64,000 nt of DNA, from positions 13,544 through 77,543 of the forward strand of contig JANYCI010000013.1 of assembly GCA_025360325.1 (NCBI GenBank), read 5' to 3'. Made by a program: the position numbers and the translations under genes. Positions 3,369-22,932 of the stretch are shown piece by piece. Each line of letters begins with the position of its first letter. Position 1 is the first letter of the stretch. This DNA comes from Limisphaerales bacterium. Lineage in GTDB: Bacteria; Verrucomicrobiota; Verrucomicrobiia; Limisphaerales; UBA11358. The notes under the pieces are model-generated. The model was not told the DNA's origin and searched no databases. It was given only the letters and a program-made list of their open reading frames with translations.

Positions 3369-4274
3369 ATGCCTGCGGCTCGACTCGATCAAACCCTCGT
3401 GGAACGCGGCCTGTGCGCCAGCCGCGAACAGGCCAAGCGGCTCATCCTCGCCGGCAAAGTCCGCGTCAACGGCCATCCCGCGCGCAAGGCCAGCGACTCC
3501 ACGAAACCCGGCGACGACCTCGCGGTGGACGTGCCCGAAAAATTTGTCAGTCGCGGTGGACACAAGCTCGAACACGCGCTGGAACATTTTCAACTCGCGG
3601 TAAAAAATCTCATCGCCATTGATCTCGGTGCCTCCACGGGCGGTTTCACGGATTGCTTGTTGCAACGCGGCGCGGAAAAAGTTTTTGCGGTGGATGTCGG
3701 CCAAGGCCAACTGGCGTGGAAATTGCGAAGCGACTCACGCGTGGTGGTAATGGAAAAAACTAACGCACGTTTTTTGAAGCCGGAGCATTTCGTGCCTTCT
3801 CCCTCGCTCCTCCTAGGGGAGAGGGCCGGGGTGAGGGGTCGGAGTGTGGTAGGACAATCAAATGACAACAGAACATCAAACCCGCCCGTTCACCCCTCAC
3901 CCTCAATCCCTCTCCCCTCCGAGGGGCGAGGGAAGTCCGTTGTGGACACAACGGTTGAACCGCCCGCAGATTTAATCGTCGTGGACTGCTCGTTCATCTC
4001 GCTGAAAAAAGTTTTACCACCAGCCGTGCCGCTGCTGAAGCTCGGCGGGAAAATTGTCGCGCTCATCAAACCGCAATTCGAGGCGGGCAAAGCGGAGGCG
4101 GACAAAGGACGCGGCGTCATCACCGATCCGACGGTCCACGCGCGCGTGATCGCGGAACTGGAAGAATTTGTCGCGGCGCAGGCTGGCCTTTGCTGGCGCG
4201 GTGTGGTTGAATCTCCGCTGCTCGGCCCTGCCGGGAACAAAGAATTTTTGACGCTGATTGAAAAAGTCCGCTGA
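3369..4274 (+). CDS. tlyA: TlyA-family rRNA 2'-O-methyltransferase (hemolysin A-like), carrying a 50-codon in-frame insertion
   Basis: S4-like N-terminus RLDQTLVERGLCASREQAKRLILAGKVRVNG. FtsJ-type SAM fold IAIDLGASTGGFTDCLLQRGAEKVFAVDVG and DLIVVDCSFISL. ATG at 3369 within ORF 3348..4274. Confidence 0.9.
   Translation: MPAARLDQTLVERGLCASREQAKRLILAGKVRVNGHPARKASDSTKPGDDLAVDVPEKFVSRGGHKLEHALEHFQLAVKNLIAIDLGASTGGFTDCLLQRGAEKVFAVDVGQGQLAWKLRSDSRVVVMEKTNARFLKPEHFVPSPSLLLGERAGVRGRSVVGQSNDNRTSNPPVHPSPSIPLPSEGRGKSVVDTTVEPPADLIVVDCSFISLKKVLPPAVPLLKLGGKIVALIKPQFEAGKAEADKGRGVITDPTVHARVIAELEEFVAAQAGLCWRGVVESPLLGPAGNKEFLTLIEKVR
3796..3945. mobile_element. 150-bp MITE/REP-like palindromic element inside the tlyA coding frame
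   Basis: Arm 3796..3838 (cttctccctcgctcctcctaggggagagggccggggtgagggg) is the near reverse complement of arm 3893..3945 (cccctcaccctcaatccctctcccctccgaggggcgagggaag). Length 150 = 50 codons with no stop in the gene frame. Confidence 0.75.
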
Positions 4275-5142: not shown

Positions 5143-5195
5143 AAGTGTGAAGGCAGAATTATGAATGATGAATTAAAACGCCGATGGACGCCGCG

Positions 5196-5235
5196 AATTT
5201 CATTTTCAACCTTCAACCTTCAACCTTCAACCTTC
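5196..5235. repeat. heptanucleotide tandem repeat (aatttca, then tcaacct x4)
   Basis: gaatttcattttcaaccttcaaccttcaaccttcaaccttct lies immediately upstream of the LacI-family start at 5241. Confidence 0.9.
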
Positions 5236-13809: not shown

Positions 13810-14380
13810 GACGATTCCACGCGGCCAGTTCCGCGTGCAATTCCTCCACGGGCAAGCCGACGACATTGCTGAACGAGCCGGAAATTTCCGCGATGATGAG
13901 TTCGCCGTGTTGCTGCACCGCATAAGCCCCGGCCTTGTCGAGCGGATTTATTTTTGAAAGGTAACGGCGGATTTGCGCCGGATTCAAAGGGTGAAAACGC
14001 ACATCTGTGCTCACGGAAAAATTTCTTTCGCGCTGTCCACCCACATGAATCAAGCTCACCCCCGTCACGACTTGATGGATTTTCCCCTGCAACTGCGAAA
14101 GCATTTTCTCTGCGTCGGCGAGGTTGCGCGGCTTGCCAAAAATTTTCCGATCCAAAAAAACCAACGTGTCCGCGCCCAGCACCAGCGCGCCGGGATTTTT
14201 GGCGGCGACGGCGCGGGCTTTGCGGTGCGCGTTGAGCTGGCAAATTTCGTGTGGCGAAAGATGCGCGTGCGCGACTTCGGTGGCATCGCTGGCGACGATC
14301 TGAAATTTGAGCGGGAGCAGACCGAGCAGTTCCGCGCGGCGCGGCGAGGTGGAAGCGAGAATGAGCGGCGGCAGTTTCAT
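13802..14380 (-). CDS. maf: Maf-like nucleoside triphosphate pyrophosphatase
   Basis: LILASTSPRRAELL, GADTLV, KAGAYAVQ. Its 3' end overlaps the dgt-like 3' end by 8 nt (convergent genes). Confidence 0.9.
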   Translation of the reverse strand: MKLPPLILASTSPRRAELLGLLPLKFQIVASDATEVAHAHLSPHEICQLNAHRKARAVAAKNPGALVLGADTLVFLDRKIFGKPRNLADAEKMLSQLQGKIHQVVTGVSLIHVGGQRERNFSVSTDVRFHPLNPAQIRRYLSKINPLDKAGAYAVQQHGELIIAEISGSFSNVVGLPVEELHAELAAWNRLT

Positions 14381-14404
14381 ATTTTTTTAATTTAGCGCAA
14401 ATCG

Positions 14405-15085
14405 TCACACGCCGCTGGCGGGCGGCTGGGTGCGTTGAATGAGCGTGGTTTCCAAATTTCGCCGCAGACTGCGTTCCACCGCATGAGCGATCTCGGCCTC
14501 GGCACGCATGAGCTTGTGCAACGCGTGGCGCTCGAGCGCGAGATAGTGGATTTCGTTTTGAGCCGCAACCGTGGCGGTAGCGGGCTGACCGCTGGCGATG
14601 CTGATTTCACCGATCAAACTTTTGGGGGGACACGTTCCGACGGTCGCACCGTTCACCTGCACTTCAACGGAGCCGGTGTTCAGAAAACACAGGTGCGAAA
14701 CGACTTCGCCCTGCCGCGTCAGTTCGGTGCCCGCCGGGGCGGTGCGCCAATGACCGGTCTTGAGCAGCCGGCGCATCTGGTGAGGTTCGAGCTGGGGGAA
14801 AATCCGCTCATAAAAATCGCGGTCGTCCGGGCTGAAGCGGGCAGTGACGTTGCGATATTTAATGATGAGTATCTGCACGACGTTCACGAGCGTGAAGACG
14901 GTTTCCCAAAAAACCCCGACCGGATCGTGCAGCCACCAAGTGCTGTAAATAAATCCAGCCACGCCCGAAGCAATGGCGAGCAACCGCAGCCAGAGCATAT
15001 TCGTCATCATCATCGAGATGACCAGCAGGATGTATTCAATGTTGCCGACGAGCAGCCGGTTGAGCAGGGCAGAATCAATGTGCAT
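14405..15085 (-). CDS. membrane protein with C-terminal cyclic-nucleotide-binding-like domain
   Basis: The N-terminal ~90 aa are hydrophobic (ILLVISMMMTNMLWLRLLAIASGVAGFIY...). A cNMP-like beta-roll follows (LTRQGEVVSHLCFLNTGSVEV...IGEISI). The start is ATG 15085 or 15139. Confidence 0.65.
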   Translation of the reverse strand: MHIDSALLNRLLVGNIEYILLVISMMMTNMLWLRLLAIASGVAGFIYSTWWLHDPVGVFWETVFTLVNVVQILIIKYRNVTARFSPDDRDFYERIFPQLEPHQMRRLLKTGHWRTAPAGTELTRQGEVVSHLCFLNTGSVEVQVNGATVGTCPPKSLIGEISIASGQPATATVAAQNEIHYLALERHALHKLMRAEAEIAHAVERSLRRNLETTLIQRTQPPASGV

Positions 15086-15202
15086 GGCAGTGGGCAATCT
15101 GCCCGGGAGAAATTCAAACCGCAATCCAACGCTTTGCAATTAAAATCCCGCGCTGGAAAATTGAAGCGTGCGTCCGCGATTTTTTTTTTGCAGATTCACC
15201 CT

Positions 15203-15742
15203 ATGCAGAATGTCCGGCAACTCCAAAACCTTGCGCTCATCGGCTTCATGGGCACAGGCAAAACCTCCGTCGGGCGGCTGGTCGCGGATGTGCTGCATTT
15301 TGAGTTTGTGGACACGGACGAACTCATCGAGGAATACACCGGGCGCAGTATCGCGGACATCTTTGCGAAAGACGGCGAAGCGGCTTTTCGTTTGCTGGAA
15401 AAAAAAGTCGTCGAGGAACTGGCGAATAAAACTCAAACGGTCATTGCCACCGGCGGCGGCCTCCCGACCAATCCCGAAAATCTCGTCCGACTAAAATCCC
15501 ACGCGCTCGTTGTCTGCCTCTGGGCGTCCACGGAAAAAATCTGGGAACGCGTCCGGCACCAGTCGCACCGTCCCCTGCTCCACGATCCCGATCCGCAGAA
15601 AAAAATTCGCGACCTGCTCGCCGCCCGCGAACCTTTCTACCGTCAGGCGGACGTGCTGGTGAATACCGGCCTGCGTTCGCCGCGCGAAGTCGCCCAGCAA
15701 ATCGCCTTGCAGTTCAAGCTCGCCAAGCGCACGCGTCCATGA
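15203..15742 (+). CDS. aroK: shikimate kinase
   Basis: Walker A GFMGTGKTSVGR, DTDELIE, FRLLEKKVV, ATGGG. The ORF-track N-terminal extension to 14435 is antisense to the neighbouring gene. Confidence 0.9.
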   Translation: MQNVRQLQNLALIGFMGTGKTSVGRLVADVLHFEFVDTDELIEEYTGRSIADIFAKDGEAAFRLLEKKVVEELANKTQTVIATGGGLPTNPENLVRLKSHALVVCLWASTEKIWERVRHQSHRPLLHDPDPQKKIRDLLAAREPFYRQADVLVNTGLRSPREVAQQIALQFKLAKRTRP

Positions 15743-16782
15743 AGTCCGCGATCCGCCAGCGCGCGTTGGAACTCGGCTTTGACGTTTGCCGCTTCACCAC
15801 CGCCGCGCCGCCGGCCTCCACCGGAAAATTTCAGGACTGGCTCGCGCAAAAAAAACACGGCGAGATGCAATGGCTCGAACGCAACGCGGAGAAGCGCGTG
15901 GAACCACAGAAAGTTTTGGCGGACTCGAAAAGCGTTATCGTGCTGGCGGCGAGCTACGCGAATTTCAAATTTCAAATTTCAAATTTCAAATCCGCCACCG
16001 GCGTCGTCGCTCGCTACGCGCAATTTTCTGACTATCACAATATCCTCGGCGAAAAATTAAAACTGGTCGCAAAATTCCTCGACGAACTTGCCGGCGCGAA
16101 TTCCCGCTCCCTCTGGTATGTGGACACCGGGCCGATTTTGGAACGGGATCTCGCGCAACGCGCCGGCCTCGGCTTTGCCGGCAAGCACACCAACCTCATT
16201 AGCCGCGAACTCGGCAACTGGTTTTTTCTCGCGGAAATTTTAACCACCTTCGAACTAGCACCGGACGCACCGGAAAAAAATCACTGCGGCCAATGCACGC
16301 GCTGCCTCACCGCCTGTCCGACGAACGCCATCACCGCGCCATTTCAGCTCGATGCGCGCCGCTGTATTTCCTATCTCACGATTGAATTGAAAGGCGCGAT
16401 TCCAGAAGCGTTGCGCCCGCTCATCGGCAACCGCATCTACGGCTGCGACGATTGCCTCGCCGCGTGTCCGTGGAACCGGTTTGCCCGCGAAGGAAAATTG
16501 ATGGCGCCGCACGCACGGAAAGATTTGGCCGCGCCGGATTTAATCGAACTGCTTTCGCTCGACGCCGTGCAGTTCAAATCGCGCTTCGCCAACTCGCCCA
16601 TCTTGCGCACGAAGCGGCGCGGATTTCTGCGCAACGTTTGCGTCGCGCTCGGCAATGTCGGCGACCAGACCGCCCTGCCCGCGTTGCAAAAAGCCGCGAT
16701 TGACCCGGAGCCACTCATCGCCGAACACGCGCGCTGGGCCATAGAACAAATTCAACGCCGCACATTACTATTGCCAGACTAA
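15739..16782 (+). CDS. queG: epoxyqueuosine reductase
   Basis: Two 4Fe-4S motifs, CGQCTRCLTACPTNAI and CDDCLAACPWNRF, plus YVDTGPILERDLAQRAGLGFAGKHTNLI. ATGA overlap with aroK. It contains a heptamer-repeat insertion (NFKFQISNFKS). Confidence 0.9.
   Translation: MKSAIRQRALELGFDVCRFTTAAPPASTGKFQDWLAQKKHGEMQWLERNAEKRVEPQKVLADSKSVIVLAASYANFKFQISNFKSATGVVARYAQFSDYHNILGEKLKLVAKFLDELAGANSRSLWYVDTGPILERDLAQRAGLGFAGKHTNLISRELGNWFFLAEILTTFELAPDAPEKNHCGQCTRCLTACPTNAITAPFQLDARRCISYLTIELKGAIPEALRPLIGNRIYGCDDCLAACPWNRFAREGKLMAPHARKDLAAPDLIELLSLDAVQFKSRFANSPILRTKRRGFLRNVCVALGNVGDQTALPALQKAAIDPEPLIAEHARWAIEQIQRRTLLLPD
15961..15990. repeat. heptanucleotide tandem repeat (aatttca x4) inside queG
   Basis: aatttcaaatttcaaatttcaaatttcaaatcc read directly from the sequence. 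It is translated in-frame as NFKFQISNFKS. Confidence 0.9.
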
Positions 16783-16815
16783 TGCGGGCTGATAATTTTT
16801 ATTCGGATACTTGTT

Positions 16816-19800
16816 ATGAAAACAATCAATCGTTTAGTCATGTTGCTGCTAACGGTGCTGTCTGTGCCCGGCGTTCGCGCGCAAGCACCCGCTTCCCTCC
16901 ATGGCTCAACGCTGTTTCAAACGATCACCAGTGGCGACACCACAGTTTTTGACACTAGCGGCTACACGGTTGTTTTTATCGCCAACGCGGCCAACAGTTA
17001 CAGCCGGGTTGACCTACTTGGAACCCCAAACGCCAACGGCACTTTCACCTATGTTCAGTCGGGAGCGGATGCCGTGCTGACAATCACTGATACTCGCGCC
17101 GGAATTTTTACCGCCGACTACAATTTTAACGATTTGCTTTCAGGCGGATATTTATTCACGCAAGGCCCGTCGGCATTTCAAGACGGGTCGTTTATCATGT
17201 ATGCCGGGCAAGCGCCCGCTTCGCTTGCGGGCAAAACTGTTACTTTAGACATCAGCGATGGCGGCGGCGGGGCCGACGCTTCAGGAACTGAAACCATTTT
17301 ATTTACTAGTTCCGGCTACACGCTAACTGATAACTCTGGCATCCATACCGGAACTTATACTTATTCACTTGCTAATAGAAGCACTGGGAAGGTAACCGTT
17401 AGCAGCAGTAGTGGTAACGGTTTACTTTACCTATCTTTTACAGACTCGGCCAGTGGTGGATTTGCCGCCAGAAAAAGCAACGGCCACTGGCAGATCGGCA
17501 CTATCATCATCCCGGATACAACACCGCCGACCGTTACCTTCACTACGCCTACGCCCAACCAGCAATGGAGCAATGCGATGTTCACTGTGAACGGCAAGGC
17601 CAGCGATGATGTCGGCGTAACTTTCGTAGATGTTTCCTCGGATGGAAATACTTGGATTGATGGAGTGTCGTCAAACAGTTGGGTAAACTGGACGGCGGAT
17701 AATGTGCCGCTGACGCCCGGCACCAATACGATTTATGCGCGGGCGCTTGATGGCAACGGTAATTTCAAGACTAACACGGTGAAAATGATTTACATCTTGA
17801 GCACGCCATTGGCGGTGAGCATGAATGGTAAAGGCACCATCAGTCCGGCCTACAACAACGCGTTACTCCCAATCGGGAAAAACGTCACGCTGACCGCCAC
17901 ACCCGCCGTAGGTTATGCGTTTACGAACTGGACAGACGGCAGCAGTTTCATCATCACCAACAAACCGACGCTGACCTTCTTGATGGCGTCTAACTTATCA
18001 TTTATAGCTAACTTCATAGACATCGCCAAGCCGACCGTGGCGATCACGAACATTCCCGTGAGCGGAAACGTGAGTAATGCGGCGTTCACGGTCAAAGGCA
18101 AGGCGGGAGATAACTTATCAGTATCAAATGTGTTTTATAACTTGAACAACGGCGGTTGGCTCGGTGCGGATTTAGCGAATGGCTTCACTAACTGGTCAGC
18201 TTACTTGACGTTGACACCGGGAACGAACTTGCTCGCCACTTATGCCGTGGATACCACGGGCAACTTATCGCTGACTAATACGGTGAAGTTAGTTTATATC
18301 TTGAGCGCCCAATTGACGGTGAGCATGAATGGTAAAGGGAGTATCGCTCCCGCTTACAACAACGCGTTACTCCAGATCGGCAAGAACTACACGCTGACCG
18401 CCACGCCTGCCGTGGGTTTTGCGTTCACGAACTGGACGGACGGCAGCAGTTTCATCATCACCAACAAACCGACGCTGACCTTCTTGATGGCGTCTAACTT
18501 ATCATTTATAGCTAACTTCATAGACATCGCCAAGCCGACCGTGGCGATCACGAACATTCCCGTGAGCGGGAATGTGAGCAACGCGGCGTTCACGGTCAAA
18601 GGCAAGGCGGGAGATAACTTATCAGTATCAAATGTGTTTTATAACTTGAACAACGGCGGCTGGCTCGGGGTGGATTCAACTAATTACTTCAGCAACTGGT
18701 CAGCTTTACTCGACTTGACGCCGGGAACAAATGTTTTATCCACTTACGCTATAGACACCACGGGCAACTTATCGCTGACTAATACGGTGAAGTTAGTTTA
18801 TATCTTGAGCGCCCAATTGACGGTGAGCACGAATGGCAAAGGCAGCATTGCTCCGGCCTACAACAATGCGTTGTTGCAGATTGGGAAGAACTACACGTTG
18901 ACCGCCACACCCGCTGTCGGTTTTATCTTCACGAACTGGGCGGACGGCAGCGGTTTCATCATCACCAACAAACCGGCGCTGACTTTCTTGATGGCGTCCA
19001 ACCTATCGTTCATCGCGAACTTCGTGGACATCGCCAAGCCGGTTTTGACCGTGACGACGCCGACGGCGGCGACCAGCGCGGGAAATGATTTGTATCTTGC
19101 CAGCGGCAAAGCTTTGGACAATGCGGGCGTGACCAATGTGCTCTATAACTTGAATAGCATGGGCTGGTTCCCAGCGGGTCCTGCTAATAGTTGGACAAAC
19201 TGGACGACTACATTGGGATTGACACCCGGCACCAATTATTTTTCAGCCTATGCCGTGGATAGCAGCGGCAATTTATCTATTACTAATAACACTAAGTTCC
19301 TTTACACCACCGCCCCGGCAAGTTTGAGCGGACTGGCGGCGGCGATCACGCCGGACGACAGTGCAATCGCGCCGTTTGGCGTGGCATTTGGCGCGACAAC
19401 TTTCAGCCAGATAGCGACGGATACGAACAACGTGAACGGCCTAGGAAGCTATACTTATACCAAACAAACACCGAGCAGCGGGCTATTAAAACTGACTTAC
19501 ACCGCGCCACCCACCGCTACGAATGAAGGTTTGCAGACCATCAAGCTCGCATTCACCGCACCGAATATTGCACGCTACACAAATGGATTGGATACGGGCG
19601 GTATCATATTTACCTCTACGCCGACGCTTGTGCTGCCGGCCATCCTGAATCAAACCGTGGTAGCAGTGAACAATAACGGCGATGGTGAAAGCATTGTATT
19701 TACTGCGGGAAATTATATCAGAAGTAATTTGCTTACTCATGTATCAAACACCAACCTTAATTACACATATGCTGCCTACAGCCCACTCGGTGCGCTCTTA

Positions 19801-20238
19801 AAAAATTTAGATAGCAACGGTCAGGATTACACCGTAATCACTTTCGTCGGAACAAACTATGGCACTGCCTATTCAGAGAGTTATGATCGGACAGGCAATT
19901 TCACACAGACTAATCAAAGAGTATTTGGAGTAAAATCGCAGAAGTCTGGTGGCAATGCGCCGATAAATTTGGTTAACCACAGCACACTGGTTATCAACAA
20001 TAACTATCATTTCAAGCTGACTTTCGTGGACTCAACCAACTTTGTCACCACGCATGATGCAGACACTAATGGGATTGGCACATATGACTACACGCGGATT
20101 GGCACAAACTCCGGCAACATAGATTTGAATTATTCCACGTTACCTGGAGCGGCCTCGATTTACTTTCAGTTTGTCTCGCCCAATTTCGCCATTATCACCA
20201 ATAGTGATAACACCCTCGGCGCGGCTATCTGGAAATAA
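16816..20238 (+). CDS. large secreted repeat protein (Ig-like plus InlB-B-repeat-like modules flanked by five copies of an unassigned ~105-aa module)
   Basis: Signal peptide MKTINRLVMLLLTVLSVPGVRA|QAP. The internal period is 168 aa. B-units GKGxIxPAYNNALLxIGKNxTLTATPAVGxxFTNWxDGS resemble divergent InlB B-repeats. It is visibly lower in GC than its flanks. Confidence 0.85.
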   Translation: MKTINRLVMLLLTVLSVPGVRAQAPASLHGSTLFQTITSGDTTVFDTSGYTVVFIANAANSYSRVDLLGTPNANGTFTYVQSGADAVLTITDTRAGIFTADYNFNDLLSGGYLFTQGPSAFQDGSFIMYAGQAPASLAGKTVTLDISDGGGGADASGTETILFTSSGYTLTDNSGIHTGTYTYSLANRSTGKVTVSSSSGNGLLYLSFTDSASGGFAARKSNGHWQIGTIIIPDTTPPTVTFTTPTPNQQWSNAMFTVNGKASDDVGVTFVDVSSDGNTWIDGVSSNSWVNWTADNVPLTPGTNTIYARALDGNGNFKTNTVKMIYILSTPLAVSMNGKGTISPAYNNALLPIGKNVTLTATPAVGYAFTNWTDGSSFIITNKPTLTFLMASNLSFIANFIDIAKPTVAITNIPVSGNVSNAAFTVKGKAGDNLSVSNVFYNLNNGGWLGADLANGFTNWSAYLTLTPGTNLLATYAVDTTGNLSLTNTVKLVYILSAQLTVSMNGKGSIAPAYNNALLQIGKNYTLTATPAVGFAFTNWTDGSSFIITNKPTLTFLMASNLSFIANFIDIAKPTVAITNIPVSGNVSNAAFTVKGKAGDNLSVSNVFYNLNNGGWLGVDSTNYFSNWSALLDLTPGTNVLSTYAIDTTGNLSLTNTVKLVYILSAQLTVSTNGKGSIAPAYNNALLQIGKNYTLTATPAVGFIFTNWADGSGFIITNKPALTFLMASNLSFIANFVDIAKPVLTVTTPTAATSAGNDLYLASGKALDNAGVTNVLYNLNSMGWFPAGPANSWTNWTTTLGLTPGTNYFSAYAVDSSGNLSITNNTKFLYTTAPASLSGLAAAITPDDSAIAPFGVAFGATTFSQIATDTNNVNGLGSYTYTKQTPSSGLLKLTYTAPPTATNEGLQTIKLAFTAPNIARYTNGLDTGGIIFTSTPTLVLPAILNQTVVAVNNNGDGESIVFTAGNYIRSNLLTHVSNTNLNYTYAAYSPLGALLKNLDSNGQDYTVITFVGTNYGTAYSESYDRTGNFTQTNQRVFGVKSQKSGGNAPINLVNHSTLVINNNYHFKLTFVDSTNFVTTHDADTNGIGTYDYTRIGTNSGNIDLNYSTLPGAASIYFQFVSPNFAIITNSDNTLGAAIWK
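17524..19312 (+). repeat. 504-bp coding tandem repeat, ~3.5 units
   Basis: Unit boundaries (aag ccg ... = KP) fall at 18028, 18532 and 19036, each 504 nt apart. The 131-bp tract 17935..18065 is identical to 18439..18569 when compared base by base. Confidence 0.95.
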
Positions 20239-20255
20239 TCTGGCACTGGACAGAC

Positions 20256-21932
20256 TTATTTCAACAAGGCTTCGGCGTGTTTGCGAGCGGCGGTGCTTTG
20301 GCCACCGAGCATCCGCGCGAGTTCGGTGACGCGGTCTTTTTTTCCAAGTAAATGGATTTCCGAAATCGTCCGGCCAGCGGTCACCTGTTTGGTCACGACG
20401 TAATGGGCATCGGCGGGGGCGGCGACTTGCGGGAGATGGGTGATACACAAGACCTGACGTTTCGCCGCAATCTGTTTCATTTTTTCGCCCACCGTGTTCG
20501 CCGTTTCGCCGCCGACATTGGCGTCCACTTCGTCGAAAACCAAAACGGGAATTTCATCCTCGGCGGCCAGCACGGTTTTTAAGGCGAGCATCACCCGCGC
20601 CATTTCACCGGACGAGGCGATGGCGCGGAGCGGCTTGGCTGGCTCGCCGGGATTGGGCGCAAATTGAAATTCAATTTCATCCAGACCTGCCTGCGGAATT
20701 TGAGATTTGAAATTTGAGATTTCAGATTGGGAATTGATCGCCACATCAAACTGGCTTTGCTTGAAGCCAAGATCGTCAAGCTGTTGGGTGACGGCTTTGG
20801 CCAGCGGTGGGATAACTTTTTTGCGCGCAGCGGACAGTTTTTTACCGGCGCTCAAGATTTCGGAATCCAGTTTTGCCAACGCCGCATTGAGCCGCGCCAG
20901 TTCGGCGTCGCGCGATTCGAGCGTTTGTAATTTCGTTTTCGCCTCGTCCCCAAACGCACTGACTTCGGCGAGCGTCGCACCGTATTTGCGTTTGAGGGTT
21001 TGCAGCAAGTTCAATCGCTCTTCCAATTCCGCGAGGCGGGCGGGGTCAACATCTACTTTGTCGGCGTAGTGCGAGACGGCGGACTGGAGTTCGCGCAAGA
21101 TTTCGCTGGCCTGAACGTGCAACTCGACGAGACTTGCCGCGCCAATGTCCACGCGCTGAAGTTCCGCAAGCACGCGCCCGACCGCGCCGGACTGCGTGAG
21201 CAAGGAAGTATCGCTCTCGCTTAAAACATCCAGCGCAGCCTGGCTCAACTGCAACAGCTTGGCGGCGTTGTTGGCGCGATGAAATTCGGTTTCGACGGCT
21301 TCATCTTCGCCGGGTTGCAGCCGCGCGGTAGAAATTTCCTGCACTTGGAAACGCAATCGGTCGAGTTGCTGCGCGTAAGTTTTTTCATCCACGACGAGCG
21401 CGGATTTTTCATTTTCCAGAACGCTGCGGCGACGGACGAGTTCACCAAATTCGCCGCGCATTTTTTCCAGCCCGCCGAACGCATCGAGAATCGCGAGCTG
21501 TTTCGCCGCGTGCAGCAGGGACTGATGATCGTGCGGGCCGTGCATATCCACGAGCCATTCGCCAAGGCTGCCGAGCGTGGCGAGCGTGGTGGGCGAGCCG
21601 TTGATGAACTGGCGATTAGTGCCGGCACTCGTGAACGCGCGCTTGAGCACAAGCTGATTTTCCTCGCAGGGTTCGAGACCGTTTTCTTCGAGAAAACTTT
21701 TCAGCGGTGCCCGAAGTTTTTTCACATCGAACACGGCCTCAACCGAACAACTCTCCTCGCCGCTGCGGATGAGCGTGCGGTCGGCGCGCTCGCCCAAAAC
21801 GAGATTGAGTGCGCCGAGGATGATGGATTTACCCGCGCCGGTTTCGCCGGTGATGACGTTGCAACCGGGCTGAAGTTCCAACGTGAGGTCGCTCACGAGA
21901 GCAAGATTTTTGATACGCAGGGTCGTCAACAT
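20256..21932 (-). CDS. recN: DNA repair protein RecN
   Basis: Walker A GETGAGKSII, SMC-like coiled-coil middle, signature SSGEMARVMLALK, Walker B VLVFDEVDANVGG. It contains a heptamer-repeat insertion (SEISNFKSQIPQ). Confidence 0.93.
   Translation of the reverse strand: MLTTLRIKNLALVSDLTLELQPGCNVITGETGAGKSIILGALNLVLGERADRTLIRSGEESCSVEAVFDVKKLRAPLKSFLEENGLEPCEENQLVLKRAFTSAGTNRQFINGSPTTLATLGSLGEWLVDMHGPHDHQSLLHAAKQLAILDAFGGLEKMRGEFGELVRRRSVLENEKSALVVDEKTYAQQLDRLRFQVQEISTARLQPGEDEAVETEFHRANNAAKLLQLSQAALDVLSESDTSLLTQSGAVGRVLAELQRVDIGAASLVELHVQASEILRELQSAVSHYADKVDVDPARLAELEERLNLLQTLKRKYGATLAEVSAFGDEAKTKLQTLESRDAELARLNAALAKLDSEILSAGKKLSAARKKVIPPLAKAVTQQLDDLGFKQSQFDVAINSQSEISNFKSQIPQAGLDEIEFQFAPNPGEPAKPLRAIASSGEMARVMLALKTVLAAEDEIPVLVFDEVDANVGGETANTVGEKMKQIAAKRQVLCITHLPQVAAPADAHYVVTKQVTAGRTISEIHLLGKKDRVTELARMLGGQSTAARKHAEALLK
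20697..20738. repeat. degenerate heptanucleotide tandem repeat inside recN
   Basis: Plus strand aatttga gatttga aatttga gatttca gattggg aattgat. The minus strand has units tcaaaty, inverted relative to the queG copy. Confidence 0.85.
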
Positions 21933-22101
21933 TTGATTGAACGCAATAAATTTGCGGATTGACGCGGTTTGGGCAAACAGAAAAACAATTTATCGAGAGA
22001 TTTTGGGCCAGTCCATTTTAGCAGGTGGTCGCGCGGCGATACCTTTGCTCGTTCAGCAAAAAGGTTGCGGGCAGGCCCAAAAACTGCAAACGTCGAACAT
22101 T

Positions 22102-22932
22102 ATGAAATTCAAAAATCTATTGGCACTGTTCGCCGCTGCCACGCTTTCGTTAGAGGTGGCGTCCGCGCAGACCAGCACCAACACCACGCTCAATGAGCTG
22201 GTCCGCCAAGTGAGCGCCAAAATCAAAGACGGCAAAACGATCAACAGCGAAGCCGAGTTCGCAACCGAATTAGCGCAGTTTGATTTCCTCATTGCCGCGC
22301 AAAATGGCGCCAAGACCGACGAGGCCGCGCAGATCATTTACATGAAGGCGATGCTCTATCTCCAAGTTTTTGAAAACAATGAAAAAGCCGGGGAGATGAT
22401 GAAAAACCTCAAGGACAATTACGGCGACACCAAATACGGCAAGAGCGCGGGAAAAATCGTGGACAAGATCGCCCAGCGCGGCGAGTCGAAAAAATTACAA
22501 TCGGCGCTGACACCCGGCAAAGAATTCCCCGACTTTGCGGAAAAAGACCTGGACGGCAAGCCGCTCTCCGTGGGTGCGCTCAAAGGCAAAGTGGTGCTCG
22601 TGGATTTTTGGGCGACCTGGTGCGGCCCCTGCCGCGCGGAACTGCCGAACGTCATCGAAGCTTACAAAAAATATCATGCCCAAGGTTTTGAAATCATCGG
22701 CGTGAGCCTTGACTCCGACCGCACCAAGCTCCATGACTTTCTGAAAAAAACCGAGGGCATGACGTGGGCGCAGTATTTTGACGGCGAAGGCTGGAGCAAC
22801 AAGCTCGCGCAAAAATATGGCGTGGAATCCATCCCGTTCACCGTGCTGGTCGGGCCGGACGGAAAAATCATCGGCAAGGATTTGCGCGGCGAGATGCTCG
22901 CCACGGCGGTGGCCAAGGCGCTGGGGAAATAA
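22102..22932 (+). CDS. TlpA/ResA-like thiol:disulfide oxidoreductase (thioredoxin fold), secreted
   Basis: Signal MKFKNLLALFAAATLSLEVASA. Redoxin core GKVVLVDFWATWCGPCRAELP, GFEIIGVSLD, GVESIPFTVLVGPDGKI. Confidence 0.88.
   Translation: MKFKNLLALFAAATLSLEVASAQTSTNTTLNELVRQVSAKIKDGKTINSEAEFATELAQFDFLIAAQNGAKTDEAAQIIYMKAMLYLQVFENNEKAGEMMKNLKDNYGDTKYGKSAGKIVDKIAQRGESKKLQSALTPGKEFPDFAEKDLDGKPLSVGALKGKVVLVDFWATWCGPCRAELPNVIEAYKKYHAQGFEIIGVSLDSDRTKLHDFLKKTEGMTWAQYFDGEGWSNKLAQKYGVESIPFTVLVGPDGKIIGKDLRGEMLATAVAKALGK

Follow-up and report, generated by a model that had tools for sequence, protein, structure and literature searches.

A heptanucleotide array in the variable loop of queG as a probable tolerated frameshift hotspot rather than a dedicated phase-variation switch

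Selection normally removes repeats whose unit is not a multiple of three from internal positions of housekeeping genes, as each slip is a null mutation. The window (the whole 64-kb stretch of DNA that was analysed) contains a perfect heptanucleotide array within the reading frame of the tRNA-modification gene queG. How did such an array come to lie there, and is it kept as a switch or merely tolerated? The features needed to address this question are as follows.

15203–15742, plus strand: aroK, shikimate kinase (PF01202; synteny).
15739–16782, plus strand: queG, tRNA epoxyqueuosine(34) reductase, 347 aa, intact with four units (TIGR00276; 5d08).
15958–15999, plus strand: 42-nt variable loop, A74–T87, between the conserved segments ...LAASY and GVVARYA.
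15961–15991, plus strand: heptanucleotide array, AATTTCA x4 plus AAT (4.4 units, 31 nt, 100% matches).

The queG ORF scores 397 bits against TIGR00276 (curated cutoff 200), with profile positions 1–336 of 337 covered, and matches the solved structures 5d08 (B. subtilis; E = 2e-58) and 5d6s (S. thermophilus; E = 2e-47). Its start overlaps the aroK stop (ATGA, 15739–15742). The aroK–queG pair is kept in relatives, usually with maf upstream, and the downstream neighbours vary. In the window, the segment directly 3' of queG (16816–20238) encodes a secreted-looking protein of 1140 aa with long, near-identical internal tandem repeats of ~190 aa each (…VKLVYILSAQLTVSMNGKGSIAPAYNNALLQIGKNYTLTATPAVGF…).

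The array encodes N75–K85 (NFKFQISNFK) of QueG, and the translation around it reads VIVLAASY-ANFKFQISNFKSAT-GVVARYAQFSDYH. The G+C content of the tract is 13%, and that of the rest of queG is 59%. The original prediction, which described a perfect AATTTCA tract in queG, was right about the tract and its frame, and its translation matches that of the ORF; the tract ends at 15991, one base past the 15990 given there. The same prediction held that QueG homologs run straight into the ARYA motif, and took the tract for an insertion. Neither claim agrees with the loops of the orthologs. Specifically, among 89 queG loci in which both conserved flanks were located, the loop measures 45 nt in 60 and 42 nt in 17, the window included. 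The 45-nt loops belong mostly to distant orthologs (42–52% identity) without the repeat. In S. thermophilus QueG the loop has 14 aa, equal to the window, and in B. subtilis QueG it is slightly longer, with 16 aa (PSRMKDAPRSTRTERR). Repeat-free orthologs thus encode a loop of similar length, an outcome that the original prediction had itself named as a refutation, and the comparison indicates that the queG tract is not a new insertion and that the protein has not been lengthened by it.

The window loop corresponds to the tip or first half of the ‘Cbl-insert’ of B. subtilis QueG (Tyr77–Asp104), an extended loop of the cobalamin domain that supports the HEAT-like domain and within which the side chain of Arg86 has no density in two molecules (PMC5175355). 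The loop is unconserved among the solved QueG structures. These published structures were used in place of an AlphaFold prediction of the window QueG made from 46 close orthologs, which was too poor (mean pLDDT 53).

A small mobile or repeat element recently inserted into queG would be in keeping with the position of so AT-rich a tract within a G+C-rich gene, and the loop of other lineages does host hairpin or REP-like inserts of 75–222 nt. We nevertheless consider a recent insertion extremely improbable. In addition to the unchanged loop length, the array is found in register at the corresponding site of orthologs with as little as 78% identity, and the tract is without inverted arms or target duplication. 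The features of MITE or REP-type elements (inverted arms, hairpin, extra length) are absent from the queG tract, and no relative of >95% identity with an empty site, 21–31 nt shorter and with target duplication, was seen.

The nearest orthologs come from sources named Verrucomicrobia subdivision 3, Verrucomicrobiae or Limisphaerales, and their array is in the same place and phase. The unit number is four in all nine of the closest orthologs (9/9). The units are listed below with protein identity to the window.

Window (100%): AATTTCA x4.
L201 (86%): AATCTCA and AATTTCA alternating.
L202 (85%): AATCTCA x4, perfect.
L203 (84%): degenerate copy.
L204–L207 (77–81%): one diverged unit plus AATTTCA x3.
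L208 and L209 (80%): degenerate copy.

Clade members farther away (62–75% identity) have different heptamers in the 42-nt loop.

L001: AAATCNN.
L003 and L013: AYTCCGC.
L004: GTGTTGC.
L005: GCCATCA.
L006: AGAAGCC.
L008: TCCCGCG.

In L002, L009 and L011, two inverted heptamer arrays in the queG loop give a hairpin, and in L019 the loop contains a 222-nt REP-like insert that is read through in frame. Lag-7 identity of at least 0.6 was found in 14 of 28 close loops, in 0 of 60 distant loops and in 0 of 145 flanking 42-nt windows of queG in the close loci; with lags 3 to 12 examined, lag 7 alone reaches 0.6 in the close loops. These alignments indicate that period 7, but not the sequence of the unit, is conserved at the QueG loop in the clade. 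Within the AATYTCA group, the bases at position 4 of successive units are TTTT (window), CTCT (L201) and CCCC (L202), and one of those sites is synonymous (ATT or ATC). Because the units change together and new near-perfect units appear in lineages, homogenisation is probably ongoing, and the units are presumably homogenised by slipped-strand misalignment or conversion.

Conservation is higher in the AATTTCA core than in the gene around it, with 23–24 nt identical in orthologs whose flanks are only 76–80% identical, which is not predicted by pure neutral slippage. Such conservation would be expected if the loop peptide NFKFQIS were functional, or if a DNA or RNA motif were recognised by a factor, period 7 being incidental. 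The occurrence of AATTTCA-type units in recN loops of many species and, among the matches listed in the scan described below, in many phyla also favours a sequence-specific role. However, other lineages have unrelated units and peptides at the loop, and some have none; the loop is unconserved in the solved structures; and (AATYTCA)n arrays elsewhere are without conserved flanks among the matches listed. Signals in the nucleic acid were likewise lacking: a promoter and terminator scan gave no match at the queG tract, an Rfam scan of 14000–22500 at E ≤ 1 gave no family, and the RNA fold of 15930–16060 was no better than shuffles (z = -0.85). We therefore regard a sequence-specific function of the tract as very unlikely.

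The queG tract is accompanied by two other period-7 arrays in the window.

5205–5235, plus strand: TTCAACC x4.4, perfect, separated by TAAAA (5 nt) from the start codon (ATG, 5241) of a gene for a LacI-family regulator.
20698–20728, minus strand: degenerate AATYTCA x4.4 array in recN (ORF 20256–21932), in frame, encoding the peptide SEISNFKSQI in a variable RecN loop.

Perfect repeats of period 4–12 with at least three copies number two in the 64 kb, both of period 7. No period-7 repeat arose in 100 first-order Markov simulations in which the dinucleotide transition frequencies of the window were preserved, which excludes chance similarity. When mismatches are allowed, lag 7 gives three arrays in the window (5205, 15961 and 20698), and lags 4–6 and 8–13 give none. 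An assembly artefact is contradicted by the presence of homologous arrays in independent assemblies, and by the length of the tract, which at 31 nt is far shorter than a read or an assembly k-mer. The probability that chance or an artefact accounts for the array is negligible.

The array upstream of the LacI-family gene sits where the ribosome-binding site would lie, and an upstream ATG at 5184 would read it in frame as an N-terminal extension. The recN array, ~4 kb from queG, reads AATCTGA AATCTCA AATTTCA AATCTCA AATT on the coding strand. The loops of RecN orthologs fall into two length classes, one of 11–12 aa that contains one ‘EIS’ unit and one of 19 aa, the additional 7 aa corresponding to three units; other RecN orthologs have hairpin elements (VAAEVTRLK...SLLTSAAT) in that loop. 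The coding strands of both queG and recN carry the stop-free orientation, the complement TGAAATT having TGA in every frame. Ectopic conversion between the queG and recN arrays was considered and rejected: there is no co-variation in the window, and position 4 reads TTTT in queG and CCTC in recN.

A scan for (AATYTCA)3 with one genome per species found at least 120 loci. The matches listed come from Verrucomicrobiota, Planctomycetota, Cyanobacteria, Acidobacteriota, Bacteroidota and others; their flanks are not conserved, and most have 3–5 units. The 834 kb around the listed matches contain 199 lag-7 arrays in 74 unit families, and at most 7 arrays at any other lag, a sample that is biased by the seed unit, although the excess of other units is not so biased.

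The excess agrees with published work. In many bacteria, no class of long SSR is more abundant than heptanucleotide repeats, according to Mrazek 2007 as cited in PMC4679880 and PMC4692102, and a possible cause is that the polymerase contacts ~7 nt when slippage occurs (Mrazek 2007, as cited in PMC4679880). They show a preference for about four units, mostly 2–6 (PMC4692102), and within ORFs they survive only when stop-free and at permissive positions (PMC4679880). The dispersed families, namely cyanobacterial STRR, GGGNATC of Xanthomonas and Nostoc, and TAACTGA of Beggiatoaceae, have period 7, are scattered over the genome and often lie just upstream of start codons (PMC4692102, PMC4679880). 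All those traits are shown by the window arrays at 5205, 15961 and 20698, and the queG tract belongs to this dispersed heptanucleotide SSR class (long SSRs, STRR-like). The dispersed families are mainly intergenic, with one unit per genome, whereas in queG a single orthologous coding site keeps period 7 while the unit changes. A literature search found no paper on heptanucleotide repeats in Verrucomicrobia. STRR heptamers were reportedly found by Vioque, in 1997, within the gene for RNase P RNA in heterocystous cyanobacteria. As in queG, heptamers are tolerated there in a structurally variable region of a conserved housekeeping gene; unlike queG, that gene encodes an RNA, and the repeats have no consequence for a reading frame.

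Because seven is not divisible by three, only 1, 4 or 7 units are in frame. In silico, these unit numbers give full-length QueG, while 0, 2, 3, 5, 6 or 8 units lead to a stop at 92–111 aa, before the cobalamin and Fe-S core. The frame logic of the original prediction is thereby borne out. Its proposal that the tract has the architecture of a contingency locus stands in part: the repeat is non-triplet, lies in an ORF and shifts the frame, and the orthologous array of a relative varies by one unit (L213 versus L212, below), but queG does not belong to a gene class with a plausible benefit from switching.

Natural alleles include both in-frame and out-of-frame changes. Surviving loops sit at in-frame lengths: of 120 close QueG orthologs, 81 have a loop of 14 aa and two have one of 7 aa. 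The 7-aa loop, EIQNRKS, compared with EIQNRKSEIGNRKS in relatives of 85% identity, corresponds to the loss of three units, giving 1-unit alleles that are in frame. No frameshifted locus occurs among the 89 loci fetched as intact-looking genes, and the unit number is constant where the array is shared. The exact window QueG protein was found on no other contig, its 90% cluster has one member, and no sister strain is on record; in the closest relatives (L210 and L211), no queG lies in the vicinity of recN, and these loci yielded no closer queG allele.

Inspection of the 90%-identity clusters revealed a split gene, the DNA of which was compared with that of its intact cluster-mate. The intact locus, L213 (ERZ27248668), has AAATCGG x4 and encodes a 353-aa QueG. 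The split locus, L212 (ERZ27249170), has 3 units and is divided into two ORFs (104 and 263 aa); it is otherwise undamaged. The two are 98.8% identical: they differ by 12 substitutions over 1000 nt and by one gap of 7 nt, which equals one AAATCGG unit. Both contigs bear k141 names of the MEGAHIT type. Should they come from short reads assembled at k = 141, collapse of a 31-nt array can be excluded.

The truncated product predicted for a 3-unit window array, used as the query, retrieved 95 short N-terminal QueG fragments, several on contigs of 19–530 kb, and some split alleles on long contigs may derive from long-read assemblies with indel errors. In 17 fragments the tail matches an out-of-frame translation of the downstream gene. 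The break falls at the QueG loop in 11 of these, the loop making up 14 of the first ~180 codons, and near residue 120–124 in 6. One loop-site fragment is one unit short, and three more appear to be.

P0279 (the L212 allele, DNA-verified): loop 35 nt, canonical 42 nt.
P0327: inferred loop 35 nt, canonical 42 nt.
P0312: inferred loop 35 nt, canonical 42 nt.
P0306: inferred loop 80 nt, 87 nt in the in-frame cluster-mate P0102.

The remaining loop-site fragments differ by lengths that are not whole units or are not interpretable; P0299, which has the window's unit type, appears by hand calculation to be 1 nt short, not 7 nt. Breaks near residue 120 show that the gene has a fragile point besides the loop. 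The six fragments broken there come from other assemblies, and the site lies near ...LGGAxxRSLWY, is length-variable and corresponds to ~16096–16110 of the window, where there is no obvious repeat. Programmed -1 frameshifting, for which one phase of the array reads A AAT TTC, was rejected: both alternative frames stop within 7–22 codons past the array, and there is neither a downstream structure nor a conserved trans-frame product. As judged from the assembled alleles, OFF alleles have arisen from the orthologous array in relatives and have risen to consensus frequency.

The reading that we favour, and consider moderately likely, is that the tract is a frameshift hotspot, prone to slippage, that is tolerated because the loop can be dispensed with. 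Specifically, an array would have occupied the QueG loop before the sampled Verrucomicrobiota subdivision-3-like lineages diverged, and the window tract would be its local copy. Slipped-strand misalignment or conversion would homogenise the units, such that the periodicity stays while the unit sequence drifts between lineages. A gain or loss of one or two units would truncate QueG before the cobalamin and Fe-S core and give a null allele, and a further slip could restore the frame. Most likely, the tract would be a tolerated by-product of a lineage-wide tendency toward 7-nt repeats, and it would survive because the loop is permissive, the stop-free orientation alone is retained and the cell can do without QueG. 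Under normal growth conditions, E. coli does not require queuosine (PMC5175355). The window's tract itself may be mutable, and it probably lacks adaptive value. Several observations sit uneasily with a tolerated hotspot. The constant unit number in the nine closest orthologs and the intact frame of all 89 loci imply low variability or strong purifying selection; four units are few for a hypermutable tract; and the AATTTCA core exceeds its flanks in identity, with an AATTTCA-family unit also in recN.

A dedicated contingency (phase-variable) locus would instead place the array under selection for beneficial stochastic ON/OFF switching of QueG, the benefit being, for instance, the loss of a step that needs cobalamin or a change in how Q-tRNAs decode. 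Such selection would fit the retention of a non-triplet repeat at one site of a housekeeping gene clade-wide, as mutable coding repeats are generally avoided (PMC3315296). It would also fit the apparent OFF alleles at consensus frequency in natural populations, the L212 OFF allele being free of any other lesion, and the similar array in recN. On the other hand, there are only four units, invariant in number in the nine closest orthologs; QueG is a cytoplasmic housekeeping enzyme for which no switching benefit is known; OFF alleles look rare against thousands of intact orthologs; and similar arrays occur where no switch logic applies, e.g. at 5205, upstream of the lacI-type gene. On balance, selection for switching at queG is unlikely, and the broader proposal that short heptamer arrays, retained over family-level timescales in permissive housekeeping loops (queG, recN), are selected ON/OFF switches in free-living soil Verrucomicrobiota is distinctly less likely. 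The tract thus has a contingency-like ON/OFF architecture and is probably not a dedicated contingency locus.

The closest functional analogue of the queG tract is the neuO VNTR, located in the CUS-3 prophage of E. coli K1, which has the unit AAGACTC in 2–93 copies and is ON only at multiples of three (PMC3046976). Like the queG tract, the poly-psi of NeuO has a 7-nt unit within an ORF, and three units encode a 7-residue peptide (RLKTQDS in NeuO, NFKFQIS here); in neuO, slipped-strand events usually alter the array by one unit (PMC3046976). In both cases, one residue class of the copy number modulo 3 gives the full-length protein. The neuO tract begins 2 nt after the start codon, whereas that of queG is internal (residues 75–85) and has 4 units. 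Moreover, NeuO is a phage-borne capsule-modifying enzyme, whereas queG is a housekeeping gene on the chromosome of a free-living bacterium; the proteins are unrelated. High-frequency switching and graded activity have been measured for NeuO; the queG tract resembles that of neuO in its sequence architecture.

The repeat in the QueG loop, and a similar one in RecN, has persisted clade-wide while its units turn over, with alleles that differ by one unit (OFF) or by three (ON). It offers a natural system for asking whether such repeats persist by mutational pressure alone or by selection for switchability. For annotators, a “split” or “partial” queG in these genomes can be a one-unit slip rather than a decayed gene. 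If the arrays were switches, they would yield reversible subpopulations without the cobalamin-dependent last step of queuosine synthesis, or without RecN-dependent break repair, so that translation or the demand for B12, as well as the capacity for repair, would be phase-variable in bacteria other than host-adapted pathogens.

Composite elements are found in the QueG and RecN loops of relatives (L002, L009 and L011; proteins P0009, P0012 and P0220), all in frame. They are of two types, namely two inverted heptamer arrays, or inverted arms (SRREEA...SLLTSAAT) enclosing a heptamer array (KSEIGNRKSEI). In the window, positions 3890–3954 contain a C-rich degenerate heptamer run (TCACCCC-like) that leads into a near-perfect 13-nt hairpin (TCCCTCTCCCCTC / GAGGGGCGAGGGA) and then an 8-nt hairpin, an element that resembles the REP-like in-frame insert in the queG loop of L019.
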